From an uncultured virus (IMG/VR IMGVR_UViG_3300035422_000155) (taxonomy: Duplodnaviria > Heunggongvirae > Uroviricota > Caudoviricetes), in IMG/VR virus record IMGVR_UViG_3300035422_000155: a stretch of 34,007 nt of DNA; one strand, written 5' to 3'. Shown here piece by piece: positions 4,021-21,301 of the stretch. Both the position numbers and the translations under genes were made by a program. Each line of letters opens with the position of its first letter. Positions within the stretch are counted from its first letter, which is position 1. The notes under the pieces are model-generated. The model made no database searches. It worked only from the letters and a program-made list of their open reading frames with translations, and was not told the origin of the DNA.

Positions 4021-4040
4021 GAGCAGAAAAGGAGGTTCTT

Positions 4041-4241
4041 ATGAGAGAAAAAATCACGTGGCAGGATGTCTATAAGGATTTTAAAATTCGACTGCCAAAT
4101 TTGTCCAAAAGAGCAACGTACTGGAAGCCGAGAGGATATCTCTCCATTACTGTATACCTCGAAGATGGTTCACAGATGGCTTATGATTATCTATACAAGA
4201 AAGCGTCTTTCATTGTAATGCCACAGACTGCCTTAGCATAA
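4041..4241 (+). CDS. Hypothetical protein (66 aa)
   Basis: AAGGAGG RBS 5 nt upstream of ATG. Confidence 0.7.
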   Translation: MREKITWQDVYKDFKIRLPNLSKRATYWKPRGYLSITVYLEDGSQMAYDYLYKKASFIVMPQTALA

Positions 4242-5764: not shown

Positions 5765-5881
5765 GCTATTTTTTAGTTCGCAAAAAAAACATGCCCTTTT
5801 ATGAGGAGAGAGGTTAAAATAGGCATTTTTAATGCTTGTTCTTTCTCTTTTGCATTTATCAAAATGAAAGGAGGTCCTGTT

Positions 5882-6172
5882 ATGTTGGAGAGCAAATTTC
5901 AAGCACAACTGATTCAGGAACTTAAAAAAATGTTTCCTGGGTGTATTGTGACTAAACTTGACCCGGACCATATTCAGGGCATACCAGATTTGCTCATCCT
6001 TTATAAAGACAAATGGGCTTCTTTGGAATGTAAGAAAAGTGCGAACTCTAAGAAACAGGCAAATCAACCATATTACGTTGAGAAGATGAACGAGATGTCT
6101 TTCTCAAGATTCATCTATCCTGAGAATAAGGAGGAAGTGCTACATGAACTTCAACAATCATTCAATGCTTGA
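5882..6172 (+). CDS. VRR-NUC-type PD-(D/E)XK nuclease (Holliday-junction resolvase-like)
   Basis: MLESKFQ...GIPDLLIL....WASLECK..Q; AAGGAGG RBS before ATG 5882. Confidence 0.8.
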   Translation: MLESKFQAQLIQELKKMFPGCIVTKLDPDHIQGIPDLLILYKDKWASLECKKSANSKKQANQPYYVEKMNEMSFSRFIYPENKEEVLHELQQSFNA

Positions 6173-6701
6173 AGGGCAACACGCTTTTCTTGGAGCAAGC
6201 AAATATCATTGGATTAACTACGATGAAAACAAAGTAGCCGAGTCGTATGTAAAATTCTTGGCAACTCAAAAAGGAACCGTACTTCATGAGTTTGCGGCCC
6301 AGTGTATCAGGCTCGGACAAAAACTTCCGAAGTCGCAGAAAACTTTGAATATGTATGTGAATGATGCTATCGGCTATAAGATGACGCCTGAGCAGATTTT
6401 GTATTATTCGGAGAACTGCTTTGGAACAGCAGACAGCATCGCATTCCGAAACGGATTGCTGAGAATCCATGATTTGAAAACCGGGACTATCAAAGCCCAC
6501 ATTGAGCAGCTTATGATCTACGCTGCTCTTTTTTGTTTGGAATATAAAATAAAGCCAGCTGACATTGACATTGAGTTGCGTCTGTATCAGAACAATGAAA
6601 TTGAAATCCACGAGCCGGGCACTGATGAGATTGTTCCTATTATGGACAAGATTGTCACATTTGACAAAGTTATCAAAAAAGTAAAAGAACAGGAGGGGTA
6701 A
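6144..6701 (+). CDS. PD-(D/E)XK Cas4/RecB-like nuclease (DUF2800-like)
   Basis: GT.LH, FGTAD, IHDLKTG and QLMIYA motifs. Confidence 0.75.
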   Translation: MNFNNHSMLEGQHAFLGASKYHWINYDENKVAESYVKFLATQKGTVLHEFAAQCIRLGQKLPKSQKTLNMYVNDAIGYKMTPEQILYYSENCFGTADSIAFRNGLLRIHDLKTGTIKAHIEQLMIYAALFCLEYKIKPADIDIELRLYQNNEIEIHEPGTDEIVPIMDKIVTFDKVIKKVKEQEG

Positions 6702-6704
6702 GCC

Positions 6705-9584
6705 ATGAACCAGGTTGCGGAAGAAATGAAAGATATTCTCATGCACTATGGAACGCCACGGCATTCTGGACGTTACCCCTGGGGGAGTGGGGAAAATCCG
6801 TATCAGAGAAATGGCGATTTTTTAAGTCGTGTGGATGAGCTGAAAGGGCAGGGACTCAGCGATACAGAAATTGCCAAAGCTATGGGTTTAACCACAACCC
6901 AATTCCGGACACAGCGGTCTTTAGCTAAAGATGAAAGAAGGGCGTTGGAAGTTGAGAGAGCCAAGGCTCTTCAATCAGACGGCTACAATCCGAGTGAGAT
7001 TGCAAGAATGATGGGGTACAACAGTGAATCGTCCATTCGTTCTCTTTTGAACTCAGATTCTGAAGCTCGTATGAACCAGGCCAGAGTAACTGCTGAAAAT
7101 CTGAAACGGCAGGTTGACGAACATGGCATGATCGCAATAAGTGCCGGAACAGAACGATACTTAGGAGTCTCGCGAGAAAAACTCGAAGAGGCTCTTTATA
7201 TTTTGGAGCTTGAAGGATACAACCATTTCGGTGGCGGTGTCCCTCAGGTAACAAATAAAGGACAGCAGACAAACATCAGAGTTCTATGTCCTCCGGACAC
7301 CCCTTATAAGGAAATCACCAGAACATATACCGACAAGAACGGCGAAGTTCATGAGAAAGTCACAAAAGTATCCAGTGCAATCTACGATTTTGACAAGGTT
7401 CATCCGTTGGAAGAAGTTTGTGACAGTATTTCTTATGATAACGGTGATAGTTTCCAAAAAGGTTTTCATTATCCGACGAGTATGAATTCTGATAGAATCC
7501 AGGTTGTCTATGCTGAACAGGGCGGAACAAAGAAAGATGGAGTTATCGAGCTTCGCAGAGGCGTAGATGATTTATCGCTCGGAGATGCTCATTATGCACA
7601 GGTAAGAATTCTTGTTGACGGAACACATTATCTGAAAGGTATGGCAATGTATGCTGACGATCTTCCAGATGGTGTTGACGTTCGTTTTAATACAAACAAG
7701 AAAGAAGGAACTCCGGTTTGTGGTCCGAAGGATAACACCGTTTTGAAAACAATTAAGAAAGACCCTAATAATCCGTTTGGTTCTTTGATTAAGGAACATG
7801 GTGGGCAGAGTTTTTATGATGACCCGAATGGTGAGTTTACAGATCCAAAGACTGGAAAGAAACAGTCGTTATCTCTGATAAACAAACGTGCGGAAGAAGG
7901 GGATTGGAGTGATTGGGACGATAAGCTGCCGTCACAGTTTCTTTCTAAGCAGAGTCTAAAACTCATAAAGAACCAGTTGAGTTTGACAATGGCTGATGCT
8001 CAGGCAGAGTATGATGAGATTTGTTCACTGACCAATCCAACTGTAAAGAAAGTTTTATTGCAGTCCTTTGCCGATGACTGTGATGCAGCAGCAGTACACC
8101 TTAAAGCGGCGTCTCTTCCGAGACAGAAATACAAGGTCATCCTGCCGATTACTTCGATGAAAGATGACGAGGTATATGCACCTGGCTATGAGAACGGAGA
8201 AAAGGTAGCTCTTATAAGGTTCCCGCATGGTGGGACTTTTGAAATTCCTGTACTTACTGTAAATAACAAACAGGCAGAGGCAAAGAGTAAACTCGGTCTT
8301 GCTAAAGATGCCGTTGGTATCAATAGTAAGGTTGCTGAGAGACTTTCCGGAGCAGACTTCGACGGCGACACAGTAATGATTGTTCCAACTGGCAAGGGTG
8401 TAAAGATTACTTCCACTCCGCCATTAAAGGGATTAGAGGGATTCGATGGTAAGCTTGAGTATGGACATGATTCTACGAAGACTGACCCCGATGGAACGGT
8501 TCATTATTATCGTAACGGCAGAGAGTTCAAACCTATGAAGAATACTCAGACTGAAATGGGTATCATTTCTAATTTGATTACAGACATGACACTGAGGGGT
8601 GCTAAAGAAGAGGAGCTTGCAAAAGCTGTCCGTCACAGCATGGTTGTAATTGATGCAGAGAAACATGGTTTGGATTACAAACAGAGCGAAAAGGACAATG
8701 ACATCGCCTATCTGAAGAAGACATATCAGGGAACAACTGATGCTAATGGCCGTTATCATGAGGGCGCTGCGACTCTGATTTCAAGATCAAAGTCCCAACA
8801 GGAGGTACTGAAGCGTAAAGGAAGTCCTAAGGTAAATCAGAAAGGTAAGGACTGGTATGACCCAAGCAAACCGGAGGGGTCTCTCATATGGAATTCTGTA
8901 ACTGAAGAATACACCGACAAGAATGGCAAGGTTAAAGTAAGGACACAGAAGAGTACAAAGATGGCGGAGACTGATGATGCCCGTCTCATTATCTCTGATG
9001 CGGATACCCCCCAGGAAAGGGCGTATGCAGAGTATGCTAACCAGAGAAAGGACCTGGCCAACAAAGCCCGTCTTGAGATCATCAATACTGGGAAGATAGC
9101 CTACTCCGCTTCGGCTAAGGCTACCTATAAGGAAGAAGTGGACGGTATGCTTGCTGATTTAAACATAGCCCTGCGTAATGCACCTAAGGAGACTCAGGCA
9201 CAGATTATTGCGAACTCTAAGGTAGCTGCTATGAAGAAAGCAAATCCTGACATGACTTCTAAAGAGATAAAGAAGGCCAGCCAGCAGGCGCTTACTGAAG
9301 CCCGTATCCAGATGGGTGCAGAAAGAATTAAGGTACCCCTTGATGAAAAGAGATGGGAGGCTATACAGGCTGGAGCAATCAGTGAGAGCCAGCTTATTAA
9401 GATTCTTAATAATAGCGACATCGATGAGGTTCGGCAATATGCAACACCCCGCACCACATCAACGCTTAGCCCAGCCAAGGTCAATAAGATCGAAGCAATG
9501 CAGGCATCTGGTAATTATAGTATTGCGGAGATAGCCCAGGCTGTCGGCGTATCATCCTCTACAGTATCCAAATACTTGAAATGA
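6705..9584 (+). CDS. Single-chain two-barrel (YonO/cellular RdRP-like) RNA polymerase, probably DNA-dependent, with N- and C-terminal HTH-like motifs
   Basis: R505-F-P followed by LSGAD551FDGD (nt 8349-8369). Upstream D278-G and Q299VR...LK311G resemble first-barrel motifs of the RdRP/YonO family. HTH-like segments: LSDTEIAKAMGLTTTQFR, YNPSEIARMMG and YSIAEIAQAVGVSSSTVSKYL. Confidence 0.8.
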   Translation: MNQVAEEMKDILMHYGTPRHSGRYPWGSGENPYQRNGDFLSRVDELKGQGLSDTEIAKAMGLTTTQFRTQRSLAKDERRALEVERAKALQSDGYNPSEIARMMGYNSESSIRSLLNSDSEARMNQARVTAENLKRQVDEHGMIAISAGTERYLGVSREKLEEALYILELEGYNHFGGGVPQVTNKGQQTNIRVLCPPDTPYKEITRTYTDKNGEVHEKVTKVSSAIYDFDKVHPLEEVCDSISYDNGDSFQKGFHYPTSMNSDRIQVVYAEQGGTKKDGVIELRRGVDDLSLGDAHYAQVRILVDGTHYLKGMAMYADDLPDGVDVRFNTNKKEGTPVCGPKDNTVLKTIKKDPNNPFGSLIKEHGGQSFYDDPNGEFTDPKTGKKQSLSLINKRAEEGDWSDWDDKLPSQFLSKQSLKLIKNQLSLTMADAQAEYDEICSLTNPTVKKVLLQSFADDCDAAAVHLKAASLPRQKYKVILPITSMKDDEVYAPGYENGEKVALIRFPHGGTFEIPVLTVNNKQAEAKSKLGLAKDAVGINSKVAERLSGADFDGDTVMIVPTGKGVKITSTPPLKGLEGFDGKLEYGHDSTKTDPDGTVHYYRNGREFKPMKNTQTEMGIISNLITDMTLRGAKEEELAKAVRHSMVVIDAEKHGLDYKQSEKDNDIAYLKKTYQGTTDANGRYHEGAATLISRSKSQQEVLKRKGSPKVNQKGKDWYDPSKPEGSLIWNSVTEEYTDKNGKVKVRTQKSTKMAETDDARLIISDADTPQERAYAEYANQRKDLANKARLEIINTGKIAYSASAKATYKEEVDGMLADLNIALRNAPKETQAQIIANSKVAAMKKANPDMTSKEIKKASQQALTEARIQMGAERIKVPLDEKRWEAIQAGAISESQLIKILNNSDIDEVRQYATPRTTSTLSPAKVNKIEAMQASGNYSIAEIAQAVGVSSSTVSKYLK

Positions 9585-9603
9585 AAGGAGTGAATAAGGA
9601 TTC

Positions 9604-9852
9604 ATGGGTAGAGTTAGATTAACGACAGTTGATAATCCTTATGATCCATTTGAACAGTTCACTTCTTGGTTTCTGTTCGATGAGGAAAAAGGATACCATT
9701 CAGTGTCGTATCTTGGAAGAATTGCTAGGACTTCTGATGAACTCTCTGATGAAGAGAATAATCGTGAAGAAGAAAGAGCAATCGACGAGATAATAAAGTA
9801 CGATTTCAGGAACATTTACCGAAAGGTGAGAGAAAAAGCTGCAACTGTTTAA
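9604..9852 (+). CDS. Hypothetical acidic phage protein (82 aa)
   Basis: RBS 3' of the polymerase stop; LTTVDNPYDPF...W...DEEKGY. Confidence 0.75.
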   Translation: MGRVRLTTVDNPYDPFEQFTSWFLFDEEKGYHSVSYLGRIARTSDELSDEENNREEERAIDEIIKYDFRNIYRKVREKAATV

Positions 9853-10049
9853 CATTAACGGTTTCATTGACTGTAGCATCTTGTACAATCTTTCGGTTAG
9901 TGACAAACGATTCATGTCGAAACTTTCCTTTTGTTCGGTTCATTTGCTTTGCTGAGAAAAAGAATGTTCAATTTGTTTCATTTACTTTTCCAGTTGTTGA
10001 CAAAGAATGAGTTTGACAGTCTGATTTCATGGCTTTCCAAGTTTGAATC

Positions 10050-10260
10050 GATGTTAAAAGCATAAAAAGAAGGTTTCTGTTGCTTGAAAAAAGTTTTTTC
10101 TTACAAAAATCAACAAAAATAACATTTATCACAAATTTTTTTTGAGACTGCCACGCTGCCTTACCAGATTTTAAAGGCATAGGGGGAGGGTCGCCAAAAT
10201 GACACCCCCTCCCTCATCGCGGCGGTCTTTGTTTTTTCTCCGGGGGAGTTTTTTGGATTT
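10050..10260. other. Candidate DNA packaging/genome-end (cos-like) region
   Basis: Non-coding. A/T tracts, then G/C-run imperfect dyad GGGGGAGGGTC...GACACCCCCTCCC and CGCGGCGG...CCGGGGG, upstream of the putative terS, HNH and terL genes. Position-based inference. Confidence 0.35.
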
Positions 10261-10264
10261 GGGC

Positions 10265-10414
10265 TTTGATTTTTTGTGTGGCTCTTGAAGGAGCTTCCAG
10301 GGCTAGGCTTCCTCCTGCGGCTGTGGATATTCTTTCCTTTCGGTTTTCTCCTTTCGGATTGAATAAGAACTGGTCTTGGGAGTTCCTTCAAAAGTCACAC
10401 GATACATTATCAAA
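10265..10414 (+). ncRNA. Candidate structured RNA upstream of the packaging genes
   Basis: 10276-10306 pairs with 10370-10400: 24 Watson-Crick pairs, 6 G-U pairs and 1 mismatch. The loop carries CCTCCT, TTCCTTT and CTCCTTT. Confidence 0.55.
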
Positions 10415-10481
10415 ACTATAGCAAAACCTTCGGAGAGTAAAAAGAAACTACATAACTTCTAAACGAGAGGAGGCGGCAAGG

Positions 10482-10823
10482 ATGGGTAAAGCCAAGGCTG
10501 TAAGCTCTTCTGATTCTTCGAGAAGAATGCGACCGGCTTTATCACCGGAAGCCAGAGAGAATCAAATGATATCTTTGGCCATTGATCTTGCTGAGAAACA
10601 GTTAATGGAAGGTACTGCTTCTTCTCAGGTCATAACGCATTATTTGAAATTGGGGTCAACAAAAGAACGGATCGAAAAAGAAATTCTCGAAAGGCAGAAG
10701 GACTTGATAGAAGCAAAAACACAATCGCTGCAATCTGCGAAGAGGATTGAAGAAATGTATGGCGAAGCGATGAAAGCATTTCGGAGCTATAGCGGTCAGG
10801 GAGACTACGAGCCTGATGATTAA
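10482..10823 (+). CDS. Probable terminase small subunit
   Basis: First gene of the packaging module; helical/coiled-coil 113 aa; GGAGG RBS. Assignment mainly positional. Confidence 0.5.
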   Translation: MGKAKAVSSSDSSRRMRPALSPEARENQMISLAIDLAEKQLMEGTASSQVITHYLKLGSTKERIEKEILERQKDLIEAKTQSLQSAKRIEEMYGEAMKAFRSYSGQGDYEPDD

Positions 10824-11229
10824 AACATATTCAGAGCTTATCCGGATACCGACTTTTGAAGAGCGTTATCAGTATCTCCGTCTTTTGGGAACAGTGGGAG
10901 AAGAAACGTTCGGCTTCAAGAGATGGCTCAATCAGGAATTCTACCATTCAAACGAGTGGCAGAAATTTCGCAATGAGATTATTGTTCGTGACAACGGATG
11001 TGACTTAGGTGTTGAAGGATTTCAAATCTTCGGTTCTATTATCATTCATCACATCAATCCAATAACCTATGAGGATATTGTCAACAACAATCCATGTGTA
11101 TTTGATCCGAATAATGTTGTCTGCACAAAGCACACCACACATAACGCCATTCACTATGGCGATGAGAAACTTCTAAGTAGACCCCTGATTGAAAGAACAA
11201 AAAATGATACATGCCCTTGGAGGCATTAG
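10816..11229 (+). CDS. HNH endonuclease (terminase-associated type)
   Basis: W...R..II.RDNGC...IHHINP...NVVC....THNAIH. Confidence 0.85.
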   Translation: MIKTYSELIRIPTFEERYQYLRLLGTVGEETFGFKRWLNQEFYHSNEWQKFRNEIIVRDNGCDLGVEGFQIFGSIIIHHINPITYEDIVNNNPCVFDPNNVVCTKHTTHNAIHYGDEKLLSRPLIERTKNDTCPWRH

Positions 11230-11245
11230 GAAAAGGAGAAGAATT

Positions 11246-11488
11246 ATGGATAACAAAAAAATTGCTGGTATGAGAATTGGCGAGCCTATTATCGGACATG
11301 TGGTTGATTGTACAAAGCTCAATGTCCGTAAAGATCCGGATGCGGATGCGGAGATTCTTGGCACGATTCCTGCCGGAGCAGAGGTAATGATTGATGAAAG
11401 CGAATCCACAGATGATTTCTACAATGTCTGTGCGGCTTCCGGATTTGAAGGATTCTGTGTGAAACGGTTTATCGCAGTCGAGGAGTAA
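11246..11488 (+). CDS. Stand-alone SH3b-like protein (80 aa)
   Basis: LNVRKDP...AEILGTI..G.EV.I......FY.V....G.EGF; AAGGAG RBS before ATG 11246. Confidence 0.7.
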   Translation: MDNKKIAGMRIGEPIIGHVVDCTKLNVRKDPDADAEILGTIPAGAEVMIDESESTDDFYNVCAASGFEGFCVKRFIAVEE

Positions 11489-11500
11489 AGGAGAGAAATT

Positions 11501-11845
11501 ATGGAGGAGAGCATACTGACATCAATTAAGAAACTTCTCGGAATCGCGGAAGAGTATAAGCAGTTCGATGCTGACATTATTATGCACATCAATTCTGTGT
11601 TTTCAATTTTAACTCAGCTTGGTGTTGGCCCCTCCAATGGCTTTTCGATTCAGGACGAAGATAGAGGATGGCATGATTTTATCGGCGAAGACAATAAGAT
11701 CGAGATGGTAAAGAGCTATATACATTTAAAGGTTAAACTCCTTTTCGATCCGCCGCTCAGTTCCGCGGTTATTGAAGCAATTAACCAAATGATTAAAGAA
11801 TTAGAATGGCGGCTAAACGTTGCGGTCGATCCATCGGAGCAGTAA
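11501..11845 (+). CDS. Probable head-tail adaptor/connector
   Basis: SILTSIKKLLGI....FD.DII.HIN helical pattern, like gp6/gp15-type connectors; no other adaptor candidate follows the capsid gene. Confidence 0.55.
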   Translation: MEESILTSIKKLLGIAEEYKQFDADIIMHINSVFSILTQLGVGPSNGFSIQDEDRGWHDFIGEDNKIEMVKSYIHLKVKLLFDPPLSSAVIEAINQMIKELEWRLNVAVDPSEQ

Positions 11846-11860
11846 AGGAGGTAATTCAAA

Positions 11861-12397
11861 ATGATAAATAAAGAACTTTATCATCATGGGGTATTAGGCC
11901 AGAAATGGGGTGTTCGCCGCTATCAGAATAAAGACGGCACTTTGACGGCGGCTGGAAGAAACCGTAAAACAAATACTGAACCGGAACAACGGGAAAGAAA
12001 TACCAAACTTGTGAAAAGGGTTGCAGCGGCTACAATTATGACAGCTACTGTTGCGGCGGGAACCGTATATGCGGCAAAGCATCCTGAAAAAATAGCAAGT
12101 GTGGTAAACAAAGTAAAAAACATCAAGATGAAAGATCTTTCTCAGCAGGCTGTTGAAAAAGGTAAAAACTATGTCAAGACAGCTATTAAGGAAGCGTCTA
12201 CCGGTGTCAAGGAAGGAGTAAAAGAAAGTATCAAAGAAGCTCCGAAGAAAGCGACGAAGGCGATCATAACCGGTGCCGTTTTAAATCAGGCGAAACGTGC
12301 GCTGGATAAGGCTGTCGGGGAAGATGAATCAACCAGAATTTTCCAGGCAAACGACAATAAGAAAATAGGAAAGTTTTGGAAAACAAATAGCGATTAA
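11861..12397 (+). CDS. Basic protein with N-terminal 'LxHHGxxGxKWGVRR' motif; putative virion-associated protein
   Basis: ELYHHGVLGQKWGVRRYQNKDGTLT; Lys-rich, with a hydrophobic Ala/Thr-rich stretch. Confidence 0.75.
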   Translation: MINKELYHHGVLGQKWGVRRYQNKDGTLTAAGRNRKTNTEPEQRERNTKLVKRVAAATIMTATVAAGTVYAAKHPEKIASVVNKVKNIKMKDLSQQAVEKGKNYVKTAIKEASTGVKEGVKESIKEAPKKATKAIITGAVLNQAKRALDKAVGEDESTRIFQANDNKKIGKFWKTNSD

Positions 12398-12411
12398 AGG
12401 AGAATAAGTTT

Positions 12412-14157
12412 ATGGCGTTATCGAATACTGCCGTTCCGAAATACTACGGCATGTTTCGCGATGCCGTACTTAGAGGTCGGATTCCAATCTGTCATGAGAT
12501 AGAAATGGAGATGCAACGAATCGATGAACTGATTGCTGATCGCGGAATCTATTACGATGACGAGGCTGTTGAGGGGTGGATTCGTTATTGCGAGGGAGAA
12601 CTTACACTCACTGATGGTTCTGACCTCGTCCTGCTTGATTCATTTAAGCTATGGGCAGAACAGATTTTCGGATGGTATTACTACGAAGAAAGAAGCATCT
12701 ATGAACCGAATTCTGATGGGCATGGTGGACACTATGTCAATAAGTGGATAAAGAAACGGCTTATCAACAAGCAATATCTTATCGTTGGTAGAGGAGCTTC
12801 CAAATCATTGTACGAGTCATGTATTCAGAGTTACTTTCTCAACATAGATACTTCGACAACGTATCAGATGACTACGGCTCCGACGATGAAACAGGCGGAG
12901 GAAGTAATGTCTCCAATAAGAACAGCAATCACCCGTTCAAGGGGTCCGCTGTTTGCATTTCTGACCGAGGGTTCGTTGCAGAATACCACAGGTTCAAAAG
13001 CCAATCGAATGAAACTTGCATCCACCAAAAAGGGAATTGAAAATTTTCTTACCGGCTCGCTGTTGGAGATACGTCCCATGTCCATTGACAAGCTTCAGGG
13101 GATGAGACCTAAATCATCAACGATTGATGAGTGGCTTTCCGGTGATGTACGGGAAGATGTTGTCGGCGCTATTGAGCAGGGCGCATCTAAAGTTGATGAT
13201 TGGTTGATTGTTGCTGTGAGTTCCGAAGGCACAGTTCGTAACGGAAGCGGTGATACAATCAAAATGGAATTGATGAAAATTCTGAAAGGTGAGTATCGCG
13301 ACATTCATACTTCCATATGGTGGTATAAGTTGGATTCTGTCGATGAAGTTGGCAATCCTGATATGTGGCTGAAAGCAAATCCTAATCTCGGTATCACCGT
13401 CACATATGATACATACCAGAGAGATGTGGAAAGAGCTGAAAATGCTCCTGCGGCAAGGAATGATATTCTTGCAAAACGTTTCGGTCTTCCGATGGAGGGT
13501 TATACCTATTATTTCACATATGAAGAAACCCTTCCACATCGCAAAAGAGAATACTGGCAAATGCCATGTTCTATGGGTGGGGATTTATCGAGAGGTGATG
13601 ACTTCTGCGATTTTACATTTCTTTTTCCACTTTCTGGTGGGGCATTTGGTGTCAAAACAAGAGCTTACATTTCTGAATTAACTCTTATGAAACTCCCGGC
13701 AGCATTAAGAATCAAATATGATCAATTCATAAAAGAAGGCAGTCTTATCGTTATGGAAGGTACTGTTCTGGATATGATGCTTGTATATGAAGACCTTGAC
13801 GAGTACATTATCAAGAGCGGGTATGATATTCGTTGTTTCGGATACGATCCTTATAATGCGAAAGAGTTCGTTGAGAGATGGGCTTCTGAGAATGGACCGT
13901 TTGGAATCGAAAAAGTAATTCAAGGAGCAAAAACAGAATCAGTTCCTTTGGGCGAGTTGAAAAAATTATCTGAGGAACGGATGCTGGTGTTCGATGAAGA
14001 GCTTATGACTTTCTGCATGGGAAACTGTATTACATTGGAAGATACCAACGGAAACAGAAAACTGTATAAGAAACGCGGTGATCAGAAGATTGACGCTGTT
14101 GCTGCTATGATGGACGCATACATAGCGTATAAACTTAACAGAGATGCTTTTGAGTAA
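12412..14157 (+). CDS. terL: Terminase large subunit
   Basis: Walker A VGRGASKS, Walker B STIDE, W.KANPNLG, nuclease GGDLS...D, YDPYNA and KIDAVAA. Confidence 0.95.
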   Translation: MALSNTAVPKYYGMFRDAVLRGRIPICHEIEMEMQRIDELIADRGIYYDDEAVEGWIRYCEGELTLTDGSDLVLLDSFKLWAEQIFGWYYYEERSIYEPNSDGHGGHYVNKWIKKRLINKQYLIVGRGASKSLYESCIQSYFLNIDTSTTYQMTTAPTMKQAEEVMSPIRTAITRSRGPLFAFLTEGSLQNTTGSKANRMKLASTKKGIENFLTGSLLEIRPMSIDKLQGMRPKSSTIDEWLSGDVREDVVGAIEQGASKVDDWLIVAVSSEGTVRNGSGDTIKMELMKILKGEYRDIHTSIWWYKLDSVDEVGNPDMWLKANPNLGITVTYDTYQRDVERAENAPAARNDILAKRFGLPMEGYTYYFTYEETLPHRKREYWQMPCSMGGDLSRGDDFCDFTFLFPLSGGAFGVKTRAYISELTLMKLPAALRIKYDQFIKEGSLIVMEGTVLDMMLVYEDLDEYIIKSGYDIRCFGYDPYNAKEFVERWASENGPFGIEKVIQGAKTESVPLGELKKLSEERMLVFDEELMTFCMGNCITLEDTNGNRKLYKKRGDQKIDAVAAMMDAYIAYKLNRDAFE

Positions 14158-14174
14158 TCTTTGACAAAATTACG

Positions 14175-14202
14175 GAACCAATATCGGTTCTTTTTTATGC
14201 CT
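14175..14202 (+). terminator. Terminator-like hairpin, copy 1
   Basis: GAACC-AATATC-GGTTC-TTTTTT-ATGCCT. Confidence 0.55.
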
Positions 14203-14227
14203 AAAAATTGATAAGGAGGTGAGTGCG

Positions 14228-14677
14228 TTGTCTGAGCTTCAACATCATGGAATTCTTGGAATGAAGTGGGGAATTCGGCGAACCTCAGCACAGCTTGGAA
14301 ATCTTAGCAAAAAAGATTCAAACTGGATTGCCAAAAAGAGCGACAAGATTACAGCGCAGGCTGAGAAGAAAACTTCCAGGGAACTTAACAAGTATGCTAA
14401 TGAGCTGTTGAAGAACCCTGACGCAGTTACAAAGTCAGGTAAGCTGAGTTCTGCGACAATAACCGCATATAACCGGAAGAAAGCCGAACTTATGAGTCAG
14501 TCGGTATCAAGTCTACGTTCTCCGTCCGGAAAAGTTGTCCAGTTTGTAGCGAAGCGTGGAGAGGTGGGGGTTATGATGGCGCTCGCCGACGAAGGTTATA
14601 ACATATCGCAGTTGAAAAACGGAGTATGGTCATCCGGAAGAGTGGCTTATAAGAAAACCGTTTTGGATAAAGCATAG
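14228..14677 (+). CDS. Second basic 'LxHHGxxGxKWGxRR' protein; putative virion-associated protein
   Basis: TTG start 8 nt after AAGGAGG (GTG 14219 is the alternative): MSELQHHGILGMKWGIRR. Confidence 0.75.
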   Translation: MSELQHHGILGMKWGIRRTSAQLGNLSKKDSNWIAKKSDKITAQAEKKTSRELNKYANELLKNPDAVTKSGKLSSATITAYNRKKAELMSQSVSSLRSPSGKVVQFVAKRGEVGVMMALADEGYNISQLKNGVWSSGRVAYKKTVLDKA

Positions 14678-14690
14678 GGGGTGATCATAA

Positions 14691-16058
14691 ATGGACTTTG
14701 CATTTGGTTCCAGGCTGAAACATGCTTGGAATGCTTTTACAAGCAATAAAGATCCAACGAGGGCTTATATGGACATAGGCAGCGGTTATGGGTACAGACC
14801 GGACCGTCCAAGATTCTCCATGGGAAATGAACGGTCAATCGTTACATCTGTTTTTAACCGTATTGCGCTGGACGTAGCGGCGATTGATATAAAACACGTC
14901 CGTTTGGATAAGAATGGGCGGTTTCTTGAAACCATTGATTCCGCGTTTAATAACTGTCTGTCATTAGAGGCAAATCTGGATCAGACAGGTCGTGCATTTA
15001 TACAGGATGCAGTTATGTCATTATTGGATGAAGGATGTGTGGCCCTTGTTCCGGTGGACACCGATGATGACCCGGAATGGGGACAGCCTGGTTCTTTTGA
15101 CATTGATTCTCTTAGGGTTGCCAAGATACTGGAATGGTATCCCGCCCATGTTCGGCTTCGTATTTACAATGAGCAGACAGGGGAAAAGGAGGATATCGTT
15201 CTTCCGAAAAGGGTTGTCTGCATAATTGAGAATCCGCTTTATGCCGTAATCAACGAGCCGAACTCGACTATGAAACGCTTGGTAAGAAAATTAAGTTTGC
15301 TGGATGTGACAGATGAACAAACGGCTTCCGGTAAGCTCGATTTGATTATTCAGCTTCCATATGTAATTAAGACAGAAGCCCGGAGAAAGCAGGCAGAAAG
15401 CAGGAGAAGGGATATCGAGCAGCAGTTAGCCGGTTCCAAGTATGGAATTGCATATACGGATGGCACGGAACACATTACTCAGTTGAACCGTTCTCTTGAG
15501 AACAATCTTATGAAGCAGATTGAGTATTTGACATCGTTGCTGTTCAGCCAGCTTGGTATTACCCAGAGTATTCTCGATGGTACTGCTGACGAGAAGACGA
15601 TGCTCAATTATTACAGCAGGACGATAGAGCCCATCGTATCTGCGATCGTGGATGAGATGAAGCGGAAATTCCTTACCAAAACCGCCAGATCCCAGAAGCA
15701 GGACATTATGTATTTCAGAGATCCATTTAAGCTTGTTCCGGTAGACAGCATTGCTGAAATCGCTGACAAGTTTACAAGAAATGAAATCATGACATCCAAC
15801 GAAATCAGGCAGGTTATCGGTATGCGTCCATCCTCTGATCCGAAAGCGGATGAGTTGGTGAACAGTAATATCAGCCAGCCGAATGGGAGCAGTCCGACTG
15901 AGCAGGATTCCCAGGTTGATGAATCTGGCGGTGGAGAAGAAAGCGAAGTGGACTCCATTGTGAATGATTTGTTCAATAGTCTGGAAGAACAGATAAACTC
16001 CATAATCGACGGATATATGTCTGGAGACGAAGAGGAGGTGGAAGACGATGACGGATAA
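14691..16058 (+). CDS. Portal protein (HK97-type)
   Basis: Lies between terL and the protease-capsid gene; NRIALDVA and IMTSNEIRQVIG..P motifs; acidic C-terminal tail. Confidence 0.9.
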   Translation: MDFAFGSRLKHAWNAFTSNKDPTRAYMDIGSGYGYRPDRPRFSMGNERSIVTSVFNRIALDVAAIDIKHVRLDKNGRFLETIDSAFNNCLSLEANLDQTGRAFIQDAVMSLLDEGCVALVPVDTDDDPEWGQPGSFDIDSLRVAKILEWYPAHVRLRIYNEQTGEKEDIVLPKRVVCIIENPLYAVINEPNSTMKRLVRKLSLLDVTDEQTASGKLDLIIQLPYVIKTEARRKQAESRRRDIEQQLAGSKYGIAYTDGTEHITQLNRSLENNLMKQIEYLTSLLFSQLGITQSILDGTADEKTMLNYYSRTIEPIVSAIVDEMKRKFLTKTARSQKQDIMYFRDPFKLVPVDSIAEIADKFTRNEIMTSNEIRQVIGMRPSSDPKADELVNSNISQPNGSSPTEQDSQVDESGGGEESEVDSIVNDLFNSLEEQINSIIDGYMSGDEEEVEDDDG

Positions 16059-16902
16059 TACCAATCATCTTCAACATTATGCCTCTCCGTACTACGATCC
16101 GGTCAAAGCTCATGAGTATTATATGAAGAACCGGGAACTAAAGGAACGCCGTTCTGTCAGGAAATTATCCGATGAGGGCAAGAAAGTCTGGTCCTATACG
16201 AAAAACGAGATTAAGGCTGAGAAAAAGACCAAAGTAGAAGCTGAACAGGAAAAGAAAAAGCAGAAAACTGAGGAAGTCAGAAACAACGCAAAGGCAATGC
16301 GCGAAAGAATCTCGTCTCGTTTGAAGGAGCTGAATGAGGCTTTGTCACAAAGGGCTTCATCGAAGAAAAAGACCATTGATGAAAGGAAGAAATCCGATTT
16401 GGACGAGATTACGGCTGAAACCGAGAAAAAGAAACAGCGGGTGGAAGCGAAAAAAGAATCGGAAATCGAAAAACTCAAAAGTATTCCCATTCCAGACGGT
16501 CTTTCCAAAGAAGAAAAATCCAAACGGGTTGCGGAAAGGAATGAAAAAATTGCGAAGCTCCGTTCGGATGCCAAATCGGAAAAAGAGAAGTTGAGCAATC
16601 GATCTAATTCTGATAAGGAGAGTGTCAGAACTACGGCAACGAACAGGAAGCAGCGTGTTACGGAGGATACCAAGGCGGAAAGGGCGGATAATTCTTCAAA
16701 CGCTTCGGCAGAAAGGCAGCAGGTCAGCAATGACCTTAAAACTGCTGTCGCGGCAGCCAGGGAAGCTTATAAAGCGGCAAAAGAATCTATCGACTCGACG
16801 TATGAAGAAATCTATCAGCGGGAGTTTGACAGGATTGCTGCCGAAATGCCGAAGGTGTCTAAACGTAAGAAAAGCAGCAAAAAGTTTACCAAAAAGAAAT
16901 GA
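16048..16902 (+). CDS. Lys/Glu-rich coiled-coil protein with N-terminal 'LQHY...YDPVKAHEYY'; putative internal head protein
   Basis: Overlaps the portal stop; GGAGG RBS; highly charged helical composition. Confidence 0.7.
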   Translation: MTDNTNHLQHYASPYYDPVKAHEYYMKNRELKERRSVRKLSDEGKKVWSYTKNEIKAEKKTKVEAEQEKKKQKTEEVRNNAKAMRERISSRLKELNEALSQRASSKKKTIDERKKSDLDEITAETEKKKQRVEAKKESEIEKLKSIPIPDGLSKEEKSKRVAERNEKIAKLRSDAKSEKEKLSNRSNSDKESVRTTATNRKQRVTEDTKAERADNSSNASAERQQVSNDLKTAVAAAREAYKAAKESIDSTYEEIYQREFDRIAAEMPKVSKRKKSSKKFTKKK

Positions 16903-16917
16903 AGGAGGTAATTCAAA

Positions 16918-18804
16918 ATGGTAAAGTGCGATTTTAGTGGATGGGCCACTAGAAACGATCTGCGCTGTGCCGATGGACGGGTTATCCGAAAAGATGCTTT
17001 CAAAGGGCAGAACGGACAGACTGTCAGCCTTGTCTGGAACCATCAGCATAATTCGCAGGATAATGTGCTCGGCCACGCATTGCTCGAAAACAGGGACGAG
17101 GGTGTATATGCCTACTGTACTTTCAACGAAACAGAATCTGGCAAGACTGCCAGGGAGCTGGTGCAGCATGGTGACGTTGTTTCTCTGTCTATCTGGGCAA
17201 ATCAGTTGAAACAGACAGGACATGATGTTGTTCATGGCGTTATCCGTGAGCTTAGTCTTGTTCTTGCCGGCGCAAATCCCGGAGCATTCATCGATACAGT
17301 GATGAGCCACGGAATGGAAGCGGACGATGAGCTGATCATCAATTACGATGAGAACATCATGCTTCATCATTCTGCCGATGATCCGGAGAAAGAGGAGAAG
17401 GGAGACCCTAAGAAAGCTAAAAAGGAAGAGGAAAAGAAAGAAGAGAAGAAAGATCCTGATCCTAAAGCTGATGAGGACGAAACAGTTGCTGATGTATGGG
17501 ATACCATGACAGAAAAACAGCAGAATGCCGCATATGCAATGATCGCCGCGGCTTTAGAGGATAAAGAAAATCCGGACAATGATGATGACGAAAACAATAA
17601 AGGAGGTAACAAAGCTATGAAACATAACGTATTTGACAAGGGGGCTGTTCAGGAGAACACCTTCCTCAGCCATGCTGACCAGGTAGATATCATCAACCTT
17701 GCCAAGAGCAACAGCGTTGGTTCTCTGCGTACAGCACTCAACATTTATCTGGAACAGAACAGGGAGACTTTGGAGCACAGCGGTATGGACGTCGATGATG
17801 CCCTGGCTCATGGGATCGATGATATCGAGAAGCTGTTCCCTGAATTCAGGGATGTCCGTCCCGGCGCTCCCGAGAGGATTACCCGTGATCAGGGCTGGGT
17901 AACTTCGGTAATGAGCAAGGCTTACAAGACTCCGTTCAGCCGTATCCGTACCCGCCAGATGGACGCACGTTCCGATCAGCTTCGTGCAAGAGGCTATAAG
18001 AAAGGAACCAAGAAAGAGGAGCGCGGCAACATGACCCTGTACAACAGGACGACAGACCCGCAGACCGTTTTCGTTAAGGATAAGCTGAACCGCGATGATA
18101 TCATTGACATCACAGATTTCGATGTTGCTGCGTATATCTACCAGGATATGCGTGAGAAGCTGAATGAGGAGATTGCCATTGCGATCATGGTCGGTGACGG
18201 AAGAGTCCCCGGTGCTGAAGGCAAGATTGACGAAAGCCATATCCGTCCGATCTGGGGCGATGATGAGTTCTTCACGATGCATGTTGACGTTGACCTCAAG
18301 GGTGCTAAGACCGAGCTTCAGGGCACCAATACCGGCGCGAATTTCAGTGAGAACTACATCTATGCGGAAGCAATCATCCGTGCGGCTCTCTATTCCAGAG
18401 AGAAGTATAAGGGAACCGGTCAGCCCGATTTCTACTGCACGCCTCATCTGGTGAATATCATGCTGCTTGCCAGGGATATGAACGGTCGTCGTATTTATGA
18501 TACGGTTGCGGATCTGGCAAAGGCTTTGAATGTCGGCGAGATTCATACGGCTGAGCAGTTCGATGGTTTGACCAGGGAGACTTCCAATAATAAGACCAAG
18601 GAGCTTCTCGGAATGTTTGTCAACATGGCTGACTATACCATCGGCTCCACCAAGGGCGGCGAGATCACGAAGTTCAATCAGTTCGATATCGACTTCAACC
18701 AGGAGAAGTATCTGCTTGAGACAAGGCTGTCCGGCGCTTTGACGAGATACCGCTGTGCGATCGCTTTGGAGATGGATGTGACTGAGGCGGAAGTTGCCGG
18801 TTAA
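16918..18804 (+). CDS. Prohead protease - scaffold - major capsid protein fusion
   Basis: N-terminal HK97-type protease (FSGWA, LVWNH, LSI, ELSLV..GANPGA), acidic linker, C-terminal capsid domain (GDG...FDIDFNQEKYLLETRLSG). Confidence 0.9.
   Translation: MVKCDFSGWATRNDLRCADGRVIRKDAFKGQNGQTVSLVWNHQHNSQDNVLGHALLENRDEGVYAYCTFNETESGKTARELVQHGDVVSLSIWANQLKQTGHDVVHGVIRELSLVLAGANPGAFIDTVMSHGMEADDELIINYDENIMLHHSADDPEKEEKGDPKKAKKEEEKKEEKKDPDPKADEDETVADVWDTMTEKQQNAAYAMIAAALEDKENPDNDDDENNKGGNKAMKHNVFDKGAVQENTFLSHADQVDIINLAKSNSVGSLRTALNIYLEQNRETLEHSGMDVDDALAHGIDDIEKLFPEFRDVRPGAPERITRDQGWVTSVMSKAYKTPFSRIRTRQMDARSDQLRARGYKKGTKKEERGNMTLYNRTTDPQTVFVKDKLNRDDIIDITDFDVAAYIYQDMREKLNEEIAIAIMVGDGRVPGAEGKIDESHIRPIWGDDEFFTMHVDVDLKGAKTELQGTNTGANFSENYIYAEAIIRAALYSREKYKGTGQPDFYCTPHLVNIMLLARDMNGRRIYDTVADLAKALNVGEIHTAEQFDGLTRETSNNKTKELLGMFVNMADYTIGSTKGGEITKFNQFDIDFNQEKYLLETRLSGALTRYRCAIALEMDVTEAEVAG
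17617..18804 (+). CDS. In-frame internal start giving a 395-aa major capsid precursor
   Basis: AAAGGAGGT (17599-17607), then ATG 17617 (MKHNVFD) in the same frame as 16918. Confidence 0.65.
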   Translation: MKHNVFDKGAVQENTFLSHADQVDIINLAKSNSVGSLRTALNIYLEQNRETLEHSGMDVDDALAHGIDDIEKLFPEFRDVRPGAPERITRDQGWVTSVMSKAYKTPFSRIRTRQMDARSDQLRARGYKKGTKKEERGNMTLYNRTTDPQTVFVKDKLNRDDIIDITDFDVAAYIYQDMREKLNEEIAIAIMVGDGRVPGAEGKIDESHIRPIWGDDEFFTMHVDVDLKGAKTELQGTNTGANFSENYIYAEAIIRAALYSREKYKGTGQPDFYCTPHLVNIMLLARDMNGRRIYDTVADLAKALNVGEIHTAEQFDGLTRETSNNKTKELLGMFVNMADYTIGSTKGGEITKFNQFDIDFNQEKYLLETRLSGALTRYRCAIALEMDVTEAEVAG

Positions 18805-20750: not shown

Positions 20751-21296
20751 ATGCTTCGTATTAACATACCGGCTGGCGAGGAGCAATGGGATGAGGTAAA
20801 TGAAATCTTCATCTATCCAAAAGGACAAACGTTACAGTTGGAGCATTCCCTCGTCTCTCTTTCAAAATGGGAATCCAAGTGGTGTAAACCGTTTCTATCA
20901 AAGAAAGAAAAAACCTTTGAGGAAAATCTGGACTACGTTAGGTGCATGACACTTACGCAAAACGTAGATCCAGAGGTTTACAGCTACTTGACGAGTTCTA
21001 ATATCGACGTGATCAATCAGTATATAGATGCTCCGATGACAGCCACTACTTTTAGAGAAGAAAAAACTGGCAAACCAAACAGGGAGCAGGTTACTGCTGA
21101 GATTATTTATTACTGGATGATTGCCTTGAATATACCATTTGAGTGCCAGAAGTGGCATCTCAACCGTTTATTGACTCTTATCAGGGTCTGCGACATTAAG
21201 AATTCGCCGCCTAAAAAGATGAGCAAGCGTGAAATCTTCAAACGTAATTCCGCTCTGAATGCGGCGAGGAAAAAACAATTAAACACCAGGGGGTGA
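20751..21296 (+). CDS. Second tail assembly chaperone-like protein
   Basis: Position; own GGAGG RBS; IYYWM...IPFEC..WHLNRL..LI resembles T-type chaperone C-termini. Confidence 0.55.
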   Translation: MLRINIPAGEEQWDEVNEIFIYPKGQTLQLEHSLVSLSKWESKWCKPFLSKKEKTFEENLDYVRCMTLTQNVDPEVYSYLTSSNIDVINQYIDAPMTATTFREEKTGKPNREQVTAEIIYYWMIALNIPFECQKWHLNRLLTLIRVCDIKNSPPKKMSKREIFKRNSALNAARKKQLNTRG

Positions 21297-21301
21297 CTGA
21301 A

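Follow-up and report, generated by a model that had tools for sequence, protein, structure and literature searches.

An L-x-His motif shared by an RNA polymerase, head-module proteins and the capsid precursor of a siphophage lineage: a probable head-cargo tag and likely prohead cleavage sites

Otherwise unrelated proteins of one siphophage lineage, among them a phage-encoded RNA polymerase, carry near their N-termini a peptide built around L-x-H. The peptide is probably a head-cargo signal, and the polymerase is probably carried in the virion. The window, which is the whole 34,007-nt stretch of DNA analysed here (uncultured virus, IMG/VR IMGVR_UViG_3300035422_000155), covers the replication end and the head-tail genes of a siphophage that belongs to the 1706/ReqiPepy6/actinophage supercluster. 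Judged by sequence comparison, the L-x-H motif is a real signal kept throughout this supercluster. The genes and tags upstream of the capsid precursor gene are the following.

6705..9584, + strand: single-chain RNA polymerase of the YonO/QDE-1-like kind, flanked by HTH domains (phrog_4291, E=0)
6738..6791, + strand: polymerase tag variant L12-M-H14-Y-G-TPRHS-G-RYP-W-G-S-G29, conserved in homologues, no PF23847 match
11861..12397, + strand: ORF 11861, DUF7211-tagged basic protein, 178 aa, pI 10.1 (PF23847 27.2 bits, residues 3-22)
11876..11920, + strand: ORF 11861 tag L6-Y-H-H-G-V-L-G-Q-K-W-G-V-R-R20, its His being H8 (51.6 bits against a profile of the tag made for this analysis)
12412..14157, + strand: large terminase, with tagged genes on either side (PF20441, PF03354, phrog_9)
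14228..14677, + strand: ORF 14228, DUF7211-tagged basic protein, 149 aa, pI 10.1 (PF23847 30.9 bits)
14237..14281, + strand: ORF 14228 tag L-Q-H-H-G-I-L-G-M-K-W-G-I-R-R (48.2 bits against that profile)
14691..16058, + strand: portal, with a spacer-type site at its N-terminus, L9-K-H11-A, nt 14715-14723 (PF04860)
16048..16902, + strand: post-portal Lys/Glu-rich protein, 284 aa, pI 9.8 (phrog_11413)

An L-x-H-[HY] motif lies within the first 15 residues of four of the 34 window ORFs, against 0.02 expected from composition. The whole window proteome of 10,683 residues has only five matches, the fifth being at residue 34 of tail ORF 33353. An earlier note had located the motif in the polymerase, ORF 11861, ORF 14228 and ORF 16048, and all four have it at the residues given there. 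The looser [LIMV]-x-H occurs near the N-terminus of seven of the 34 ORFs (1.39 expected), the gain being the portal and two ORFs with doubtful starts. The three carriers that the note had grouped as head-module proteins all contain the motif but are of mixed kind. Specifically, ORF 11861 and ORF 14219/14228 both score above the curated cut-off of PF23847 (DUF7211), 27 bits, whereas ORF 16048, like the RNA polymerase, has no PF23847 match at E<=0.01. The latter two have in common with DUF7211 only L-x-H-Y(-G), plus G...WG in the polymerase. ORF 11861 occupies the slot directly ahead of terL, and ORF 14228 that between terL and the portal gene. As GTG 14219 falls within the Shine-Dalgarno sequence AAGGAGGTGA, TTG 14228 is the likelier start of the latter, and counting from it the tag His is residue 6. 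A tagged protein is not needed to fill the place of the missing small terminase, for which ORF 10482 (phrog_4259), a conserved small protein ahead of the HNH gene in every relative, is the better candidate.

The tag is a peptide of 15-20 residues that reads L-x-H-[HY]-G-[VI]-x-G-[MQ]-[KR]-W-G-x-[RK]-[RK]. When G..G.[KR]W[GH] was taken as the sole anchor, 92 distinct tag contexts were gathered. A His stands two residues ahead of the first Gly in 92/92 contexts, and a Leu four residues ahead of it in 87/92. The tag His is mostly 5-16 residues from the closest plausible start, and the sequence ahead of L-x-H varies in length (about 2-30) and composition. When the tag is masked, the proteins that bear it fall into at least 27 families, which include a GNAT acetyltransferase and the PF15644 glutamine-deamidase toxin domain. 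Tags are also found internally, preceded by a 2H/RNA-ligase-like domain or DUF5662, and twice within one protein. In a close relative, the pre-terL slot is taken by a tagged protein of 292 aa with a glutamine-deamidase domain (L009:1-876); in a relative, the gene immediately upstream of the portal gene encodes a GNAT acetyltransferase with the tag (L048:1788-2747). DUF7211 (PF23847) is a family without assigned function, and no paper naming it was found in the literature searched. A set of 400 scored genomes of the class gave matches to PF23847 in G001 and G304 only, and matches to the capsid precursor in these two only, both kinds lying on shared contigs; in G001, three of three related phages have tag, polymerase and precursor. 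A short-tag tblastn search against phages returned 22 records, all within supercluster genera, and its sensitivity is low because only these 22 were returned. A type VII secretion WxG/LXG signal and an L27/Prp-type host-protease leader were both rejected on account of motif mismatch and of the confinement of the tag to this phage lineage.

The other two carriers have motifs of their own. The polymerase is 959 residues long and has the catalytic DxDGD loop (DFDGD, residues 551-555). It scores 18.2 bits to PF05183 (RdRP), under the cut-off of 23.8, and a PDB sequence search for a solved relative gave no match. Koert et al. (bioRxiv 10.1101/842583) report 95.7% by HHpred to PF05183 for the HTH-flanked RdRP-like protein. 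The variant tag, [LI]-x-H-Y-G..R[RKH]SGRYP[WY]GSG after 8-24 variable residues, is present in five of the six polymerases from named phages and the window, the diverging one being that of BitterVaud1 (M-A-H-T-G ... SGRYKWGTG). It is likewise conserved in nine distinct IMG/VR polymerases. No repeated promoter-like DNA motif was found within the window among families of >=16 nt. The post-portal protein ORF 16048 begins with H-L8-Q-H10-Y-ASPYYDPVKAHEYY, where LQH is nt 16069-16077, and in its family [LIMVF]-x-H precedes YDPxK..EYY in 19/19 distinct contexts, actinophages included.

Database records of cultured relatives link the tag with the particle. In the record of Lactococcus phage 1706 (EU081845), the depositors label orf7 and orf75 'structural protein'. 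The former matches PF23847 twice (E=6.9e-11) and the latter is the polymerase homologue with the variant tag. Both are direct homologues of window proteins in an identical gene order. The polymerase in the ReqiPepy6 record is likewise labelled 'structural protein'. Since the untagged 1706 proteins orf62 and orf71 also have the label, the tag is not required for every virion protein. The 1706 label may derive from virion mass spectrometry, as its presence on genes outside the structural module suggests. For this lineage, the literature searched contained neither a virion proteome nor an N-terminal sequence; the Giantsbane preprint is without proteomics, and ArV2 (PMC4205034) was set aside as a source of virion data, being an unrelated phage in which the protease is separate. 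The earlier claim that the polymerase and the basic proteins are packaged has outside backing, for the polymerase and one tagged protein, from the depositors' annotation of phage 1706. As unrelated proteins bear one tag and their 1706 homologues are recorded as particle parts, the tag is probably a mark for loading into the head and for delivery together with the DNA. It is very unlikely that the tagged proteins instead act unpackaged inside the infected cell, the tag binding, for example, nucleic acid or a host protein, and the 1706 labels reflecting contaminants or loosely bound proteins. The 1706 support is a database label, and a polymerase with two HTH domains, whose gene sits among replication genes, could be a purely non-virion enzyme. 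However, the tagged genes of all relatives examined lie wedged among those for the connector, TerL, portal and capsid, two of two tag-bearing 1706 proteins are labelled structural, and the protein atlas, which returned DUF7211 clusters only, records them as viral only, without added function.

The capsid precursor (16918-18804) is one chain composed of a protease, a spacer and an HK97-fold capsid domain.

16918..17301, + strand: protease domain, residues 1-128 (phrog_3270 'head maturation protease', E=1e-216)
17302..17811, + strand: spacer, residues 129-298, with six [LM]-x-H sites, mostly disordered in the AF2 model
17812..18804, + strand: HK97-fold major capsid domain, starting at G299-IDDIEKLFPE (Foldseek; PF05065 weak)

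PF04586 (S78) scores 19.4 bits on the window precursor, under its cut-off of 21, and is precomputed on many homologues. Residues 1-128 have a beta-rich fold in the AF2 model, and H42, H53, S91 and S113 are invariant across 69 precursor sequences. By Foldseek, the capsid domain resembles the GTA capsid (6tb9, E=1e-10) and HK97 (1ohg, E=1.6e-9) over about 300 aligned columns. The precursor model has a mean pLDDT of 67, higher within the capsid domain, and a sequence search gave no solved structure for the precursor. The family comprises 1941 clusters at 50% identity.

The spacer sites are V-M-S-H131|G, M-L-H-H151|S, A-M-K-H236|N, F-L-S-H252|A, T-L-E-H287|S and A-L-A-H298|G. Five of them (His 131, 150/151, 252, 287 and 298) had been listed correctly before, and the sixth, A-M-K-H236-N, had been overlooked. 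All seven spacer His of the window have L or M at -2, against 1.36 expected from shuffling. The family survey covered 150 representatives with pairwise identities below 50%, of which 108 were usable. The number of [LIMV]-x-H per spacer has a median of 6 (1.27 expected), with p<=0.01 in 101/108. One of L, I, M or V precedes the His at -2 in 637 of 756 spacer His, compared with 402 of 1027 non-spacer His. In 566/637 the site His is followed by S, A, G, N or D, and in 506/637 by S, A, G or N. The first site lies 7-8 residues past GANxGA in 85/108 precursors, and the last one 8-25 residues ahead of LFP in 99/108. Hence, homologues conserve these sites in position, enriched and placed at both domain borders, in agreement with what the earlier note had expected of cleavage sites. 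A site of the same type, [LI]-x-H-[AGS], is present at 24 of 28 distinct portal N-termini.

In this comparison the spacer [LIMV]-x-H sites look like those of a protease, and prohead cleavage after His in the spacer is likely. An unlikely alternative is that these His are metal- or pH-sensing residues or make scaffold-like contacts, with the protease cutting elsewhere. We know of no S78-type prohead protease that cuts after His, which favours this alternative. So does the AF2 model, in which the spacer has helices at 190-214 and 252-298 and sites 252, 287 and 298 are at helix ends, not in disorder. Moreover, the residue directly before G-I..I[DE].LFP is Tyr in 43 and His in 19 of 64 anchored sequences; because of this Tyr, His at that position is not itself conserved. 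A-L-A-H298 does stand ahead of the apparent mature capsid as had been claimed, but it is a lineage-specific duplicate, and the last site of the family, 0-17 residues before the conserved [YH]-G-I..I[DE].LFP, does not always adjoin the capsid domain. On the other hand, a hydrophobic -2, a free -1 and a small +1 residue make a protease-site pattern rather than a metal site, the sites stand exactly at both domain borders, and they persist while the intervening sequence is low-complexity and unalignable. Cleavage after the spacer His remains the reading that we prefer.

The tags and the spacer sites had been taken for one L-x-H signal. The tripeptide is indeed common to both, but the residue after it differs. 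In the 92 tags this residue is Y49/H34/F4/W2/K1/R1, i.e. Tyr or His in 83/92 and aromatic or His in 89/92, whereas Tyr, His or Phe follows the spacer-site His in only 10/637 (Y8/H1/F1). Therefore, tags and spacer sites are two classes, and the tags, as a sequence class apart, may not be cut. The proposal that the tag is a removable leader is also contradicted. With its conserved portion, [HY]G.xG.[KR]WG.[RK][RK], downstream of the putative cut and a variable part upstream, the tag does not qualify as a removable leader of the T4 kind. The internal and duplicated tags count against the leader proposal as well.

These differences bear on whether the tag has anything to do with the protease. It is rather doubtful that the tag is a virion-incorporation or function module unrelated to the protease, one that might bind the portal, packaged DNA or scaffold helices. 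Its L-x-H would then be a structural part of a small fold or beta-hairpin with a coincidental likeness to the spacer sites. This reading gains from the sharply unlike +1 residue and from the Leu, which is far stricter in tags (87/92) than at spacer sites (-2 residue L 322, I 155, M 92, V 68; n=637). It also gains from a conserved part that would remain on the protein, from the internal tags, and from the basic nature of the tagged proteins (pI about 10), which DNA-associated internal proteins often share. Yet the tag and the L-x-H-rich precursor co-occur strictly within the genomes searched, L-x-H is the most invariant part of the DUF7211, polymerase and post-portal motifs, and a common fold poorly accounts for only a tripeptide in common. 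Complex prediction for the protease (1-135) with residues 186-628 and tag residues 1-50 scored 0.00 in both runs, which, being without controls, speaks neither for nor against an interaction.

The whole proposal, to which we give even weight for and against, is that the built-in protease cuts the spacer at [LIMV]-x-His and that the tag loads the polymerase and other cargo, which are ejected with the DNA. The protease would cut where the His is followed by a small residue. By these cuts the protease would be released and the spacer, which resembles a scaffold, broken into pieces, and the mature capsid would start at G299 or immediately ahead of it. The DUF7211 tag stands at the front of a varying complement of small proteins, basic or enzymatic, whose genes lie around terL and the portal gene; its longer variant heads the RNA polymerase and its shorter L-x-H-Y variant the post-portal protein. 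The tag would recruit its proteins into the procapsid, the likeliest route being that its L-x-H uses spacer-site recognition while the conserved part remains on the protein. From the head, polymerase and cargo would pass into the cell with the DNA, and the injected polymerase would start phage transcription, by analogy with the N4, crAss-like and P23-45 virion polymerases. Observed directly are the motifs, the way they are conserved and co-occur, and the phage 1706 labels; His cleavage, loading by way of the tag and ejection are inferred. More tentatively, the whole supercluster, whose siphophages have Firmicutes and Actinobacteria hosts, might use a two-part code. In such a code, [LIMV]-x-His plus a small residue would specify His-specific cuts in the precursor and perhaps the portal, and L-x-His-Tyr/His-Gly plus GxKWG would specify head loading and injection of the polymerase and swappable effectors.

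A close likeness to this arrangement is found in T4, where a capsid-targeting sequence on IPI-III and Alt is removed by the prohead protease gp21. In both systems, a short N-terminal peptide is common to unrelated proteins, some of them enzymes, and goes with a protease motif of three residues whose -2 position is hydrophobic; the T4 proteins are inside the head and are injected. Cleavage takes away the T4 targeting part, which is upstream of the cut, whereas the conserved part here follows the putative cut. To our knowledge, no capsid-targeting leader has its conserved part after the cut. Other differences are that the proposed P1 is His instead of Glu, that tags here are also internal or tandem, and that protease and capsid protein form a single fused chain. 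Similarly, in the MuF polymorphic toxins that temperate phages encode beside portal and terminase genes (Jamet et al. 2017, PMC5576092), a conserved head-associated N-terminal module is joined to swappable C-terminal enzyme or toxin domains, and a glutamine-deamidase toxin domain is among the tagged cargo here. Unlike that module, the present one is a peptide of about 20 residues that is also on an RNA polymerase. The MuF/SPP1 gp7 domain had no Pfam match on the window's tagged proteins or on 28 others with the tag, which are encoded in related loci and phages.

Virion RNA polymerases include N4 vRNAP and gp66 of crAss-like phi14:2. In Thermus phage P23-45, the RNAP is fused to the tape measure (PMC10770324). 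The enzyme described here is likewise a phage-encoded single-chain polymerase, particle-borne in N4, crAss-like phages and P23-45 and proposed to be so here, and it shares with that of crAss the two-barrel YonO/QDE-1-like class. It differs in being a 959-aa enzyme with HTH domains at both ends, from a siphovirus and without tape-measure fusion, its virion location being drawn from the 1706 record alone. The 'HTH-flanked RdRP-like protein' of the supercluster and its polymerase motifs have already been described (Koert et al., bioRxiv 10.1101/842583); the excerpted text of that preprint does not mention the common tag, the orf75 virion label or the spacer His sites.

If the proposal is true, a large and widespread phage lineage carries its own transcription enzyme in the particle. 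So far as we know, virion polymerases have been shown in N4-like, crAss-like and P23-45-like phages, and not in ordinary siphophages of lactic, gut or soil bacteria. Furthermore, a portable peptide only about 20 residues long would suffice to load chosen proteins into the capsid, which would be useful in phage engineering and would explain effector enzymes travelling with phage DNA. His at the cutting position would represent a new prohead protease specificity. Should the two-part code also be true, this lineage would have a natural and modular means of delivering proteins, its tag being about 20 residues long.

Four of the 34 window ORFs have L-x-H-[HY] in residues 1–15, against an expectation of 0.02, which confirms the four N-termini for which, together with the capsid precursor, the earlier note had proposed a common cleavage and packaging code. 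They belong to the polymerase, two tagged proteins, and the post-portal protein. For the second tagged gene, the TTG at 14228 assumed in that note is the likelier of two starts, because the GTG at 14219 falls within the Shine-Dalgarno sequence. The whole window proteome has only one further L-x-H-[HY], at residue 34 of tail ORF 33353–34006 (V-L-Q-H-Y-G). The remaining tag is absent there, and this fifth match is probably due to chance. The plus strand carries every gene of interest.

Gene map of the window
141–2177, NrdD
6144–6701, +, exonuclease
6705–9584, +, single-chain RNA polymerase, 959 aa, HTH domains at both ends (phrog_4291, E=0)
10816–11229, +, HNH endonuclease
11501–11845, +, connector
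11861–12397, +, ORF 11861, tagged (PF23847)
12412–14157, +, TerL
14219/14228–14677, +, ORF 14219/14228, tagged (PF23847)
14691–16058, +, portal
16048–16902, +, ORF 16048, post-portal protein
16918–18804, +, protease-spacer-capsid fusion, 628 aa
after 18804, tail genes

The polymerase scores weakly against PF05183 and has DFDGD at residues 551–555. In tblastn searches, the fusion and the polymerase matched 244 and 250 phage records, respectively, and the two sets are nearly identical. They cover Arthrobacter, Gordonia, Streptomyces, Lactococcus (1706, P092, and kin), Rhodococcus (ReqiPepy6), Curtobacterium, Microbacterium, Faecalibacterium, Bifidobacterium, and human-gut contigs. These sequences place the lineage in the supercluster described by Koert et al. 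(bioRxiv 10.1101/842583); the available part of that preprint describes the conserved blocks and a polymerase-like protein, and in that part no shared tag appears. A small protein (10482–10823, phrog_4259, N-terminus ...ATTPE(A/S)RENQ...) is kept before the HNH gene in the window, 1706, ReqiPepy6, Bing, Mudcat, Gravy, and BitterVaud1, and is a candidate small terminase because no other is annotated. The endolysin (21293–22741; GH25, CHAP, and two CW_7 repeats) is located within the tail-gene block and not in a terminal lysis cassette, with tail-chaperone-like genes on one side and tail-completion and tape-measure genes on the other. The 1727-aa tail ORF (26181–31364) contains 11 tandem 186-nt (62-aa) units, 61–74% alike, in two blocks at 27492–29645. 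The window has three N runs (26286–26295, 26569–26593, and 28366–28382). A 31-nt translation-start region, AAGGAGGTAATTCAAAATG, is nearly duplicated (87% over 31 nt) at 11838–11868 and 16895–16925, preceding ORF 11861 and the capsid precursor gene, and has a weaker copy at 4022–4052.

The tag corresponds to PF23847 (DUF7211), a Pfam family of unknown function with 25 positions and a cut-off of 27 bits. ORFs 11861 and 14219 score 27.2 and 30.9 bits, respectively. In the literature library searched, neither DUF7211 nor the tag is mentioned, and no virion polymerase is described for the supercluster lineage. We counted tags in the window, 80 IMG/VR loci, and eight named phages, anchoring solely on the C-terminal half G..G.[KR]W[GH], and obtained 92 distinct contexts. 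All 92 have His two residues upstream of the first Gly, and 87 have Leu four residues upstream. The residue separating His from Gly is Y (49), H (34), F (4), W (2), K (1), or R (1). The His is mostly 5–16 residues from the nearest plausible start, and the segment upstream of L-x-H varies in both length and sequence. Tagged genes are invariably near terL and the portal gene, seven of them in succession in ReqiPepy6 (gp015–gp021). The 1706 orf7 and Mudcat gp7 proteins each have two tags. The internal and tandem tags show a module marking the start of every cargo unit; polyprotein cutting and a position-independent tag fit them equally. The annotated start of Bing gene 11 (5847–6389), M-K-W-G-V-R-R, falls within the tag. 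Upstream, the frame stays open (…AELIHYGVKG…) but offers no ATG, GTG, or TTG ahead of the tag, and it overlaps the last part of gene 10. The start could be mis-set, the start codon unusual, or the gene fused to gene 10 by a frameshift.

Variants of L-x-H occur in three other proteins. The polymerase has a longer form, [LI]-x-H-Y-G..R[RKH]SGRYP[WY]GSG, in the window, 1706, Mudcat, Bing, ReqiPepy6, and nine distinct IMG/VR polymerases, and a divergent one in BitterVaud1 (M-A-H-T-G, then SGRYKWGTG). The post-portal family has [LIMVF]-x-H, mostly L-Q-H-Y, ahead of YDPxK..EYY in 19/19 distinct contexts. The portal N-termini of relatives have [LI]-x-H-[AGS] in 24 of 28 distinct contexts, a site absent from the earlier list, and the window portal has the spacer-type L-K-H-A, with L-K-H at residues 9–11 (14715–14723). 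Asn replaces the His in three actinophage or Bifidobacterium portals. The portal motif may be a processing site, or merely a conserved helix.

The spacer of the capsid precursor has His at 131, 150/151, 236, 252, 287, and 298, all of them preceded by Leu or Met at −2. The linker sites proposed earlier are therefore present, together with the overlooked H236. The spacer has seven overlapping [LM]-x-H matches, whereas shuffling gives 1.36. An alignment of 123 precursors shows at least 98% conservation of His 131, 151, 236, 252, and 287, each with L/M/I/V at −2; the sequence separating them is low-complexity and scarcely alignable. As the 120 database sequences of this alignment are close to the window, we recounted on representatives sharing less than 50% identity, taking the best 150 of 1941 clusters (E<=0.001); the 42 without both anchors were dropped, which left 108. 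The median is six [LIMV]-x-H per spacer versus 1.27 expected (p<=0.01 for 101/108). LIMV precedes 637 of 756 spacer His at −2, compared with 402 of 1027 His outside the spacer, and the residue following the site His is S, A, G, N, or D in 566/637. The first site is 7–8 residues past GANxGA, the end of the protease domain, in 85/108, and the last is 8–25 residues ahead of LFP, the start of the capsid domain, in 99/108. The AF2 model (mean pLDDT 67) has a beta-rich protease domain (1–128), disorder at 118–188 and 214–248, helices at 190–214 and 252–298, and then an HK97 fold (Foldseek). We read the spacer [LIMV]-x-H as putative maturation sites. That these recurrent His motifs, some of them at helix ends, are not cutting sites is quite unlikely. 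L-x-H stands immediately ahead of G-[IL]..[IL][DE].LFP in 8/10 diverse sequences, and four residues earlier in BitterVaud1 and Mudcat ([LI]-x-H-A-Q-[DE]-Y-G-I). The A-L-A-H298 G site, proposed to border the mature capsid, does occur in the window, but is a duplicate particular to close kin (35/123); in the wider family, 64 of the 108 representatives have the G-I anchor, with Tyr immediately ahead of it in 43 and His in 19.

The residue after His separates the tags from the spacer. It is Tyr or His in the tags, polymerase, and post-portal protein, and Ser, Ala, Gly, or Asn at the spacer and portal sites. An aromatic residue or His follows directly in 89/92 tags versus 10/637 spacer sites, hence there are two classes of L-x-H. 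The tag is not a removable leader of the T4 kind, since its conserved part is C-terminal of the putative cut and would stay on the protein. The cargo-class L-x-H may be bound without cutting, cut slowly, or recognised by something else. A virion module independent of the protease would suit the split, less so the shared L-x-H, and we consider it somewhat unlikely.

Evidence for packaging comes from Lactococcus phage 1706, whose depositors' record (EU081845) labels both orf7 and orf75 'structural protein'. The former, between connector and terL, matches PF23847 twice (E=6.9e-11); the latter, the polymerase homologue, carries the variant tag. RefSeq later named orf75 'RNA-dependent RNA polymerase', hiding the structural label, and the ReqiPepy6 record reads 'similar to 1706_gp75, structural protein'. 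For a gene that lies outside the structural module, such a label implies that its product was detected in particles. The 1706 work reportedly used mass spectrometry. A cytoplasmic function of the tagged proteins without packaging is very improbable. Untagged orf62 and orf71 are likewise labelled structural, thus the tag is not the sole route into the particle.

When the tag is masked, permissive single linkage groups 126 distinct tagged proteins into 27 families. A Pfam search covered 28 tagged proteins of related loci and phages (family representatives, 1706 orf7, and Mudcat gp7).

Pfam domains in tagged proteins of relatives
L048 (related locus), 1788–2747, GNAT acetyltransferase, tagged, immediately before the portal gene
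L009 (related locus), 1–876, PF15644 'papain fold toxin 1, glutamine deamidase' domain, tagged, in the slot of ORF 11861
Gravy gp12, 2H/2'-5' RNA-ligase-like domain, preceding an internal tag
G001 (sampled genome) contig 20, DUF5662, preceding an internal tag

The window's two tagged proteins are basic (pI 10.1) and matched no further family. The L009 and L048 phages, with portals 94% and 76% identical to the window's, have larger, different tagged genes in the slots of 11861–12397 and 14228–14677, and the cargo slots turn over quickly. Among 400 scored genomes of the class (401 drawn), PF23847 and the precursor profile each match only G001 and G304, on the same contigs. Each of the three related phages in G001 has the tag, the polymerase, and the precursor. 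As the events are few and the genomes kin, this co-occurrence is a consistency, not a statistic.

A mechanism combining protease cutting at the spacer sites, tag-led cargo loading, and entry with the DNA has, in our judgment, about an even chance of being right. The precursor would be cut by its built-in protease at [LIMV]-x-His sites whose next residue is small. Cargo, including the polymerase, would be brought into the procapsid by the DUF7211 tag or one of its variants, most likely by way of the same L-x-His recognition, the GxKWG part providing a second contact, and would enter the cell together with the DNA. The tag system would work similarly to T4 capsid targeting and, as far as the available part of PMC5576092 describes them, MuF polymorphic toxins, but belongs to neither. 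It would also yield a virion polymerase, as in N4 and crAss-like phages and, from the accessible part of PMC10770324, P23-45 phages, without being a member of those systems.
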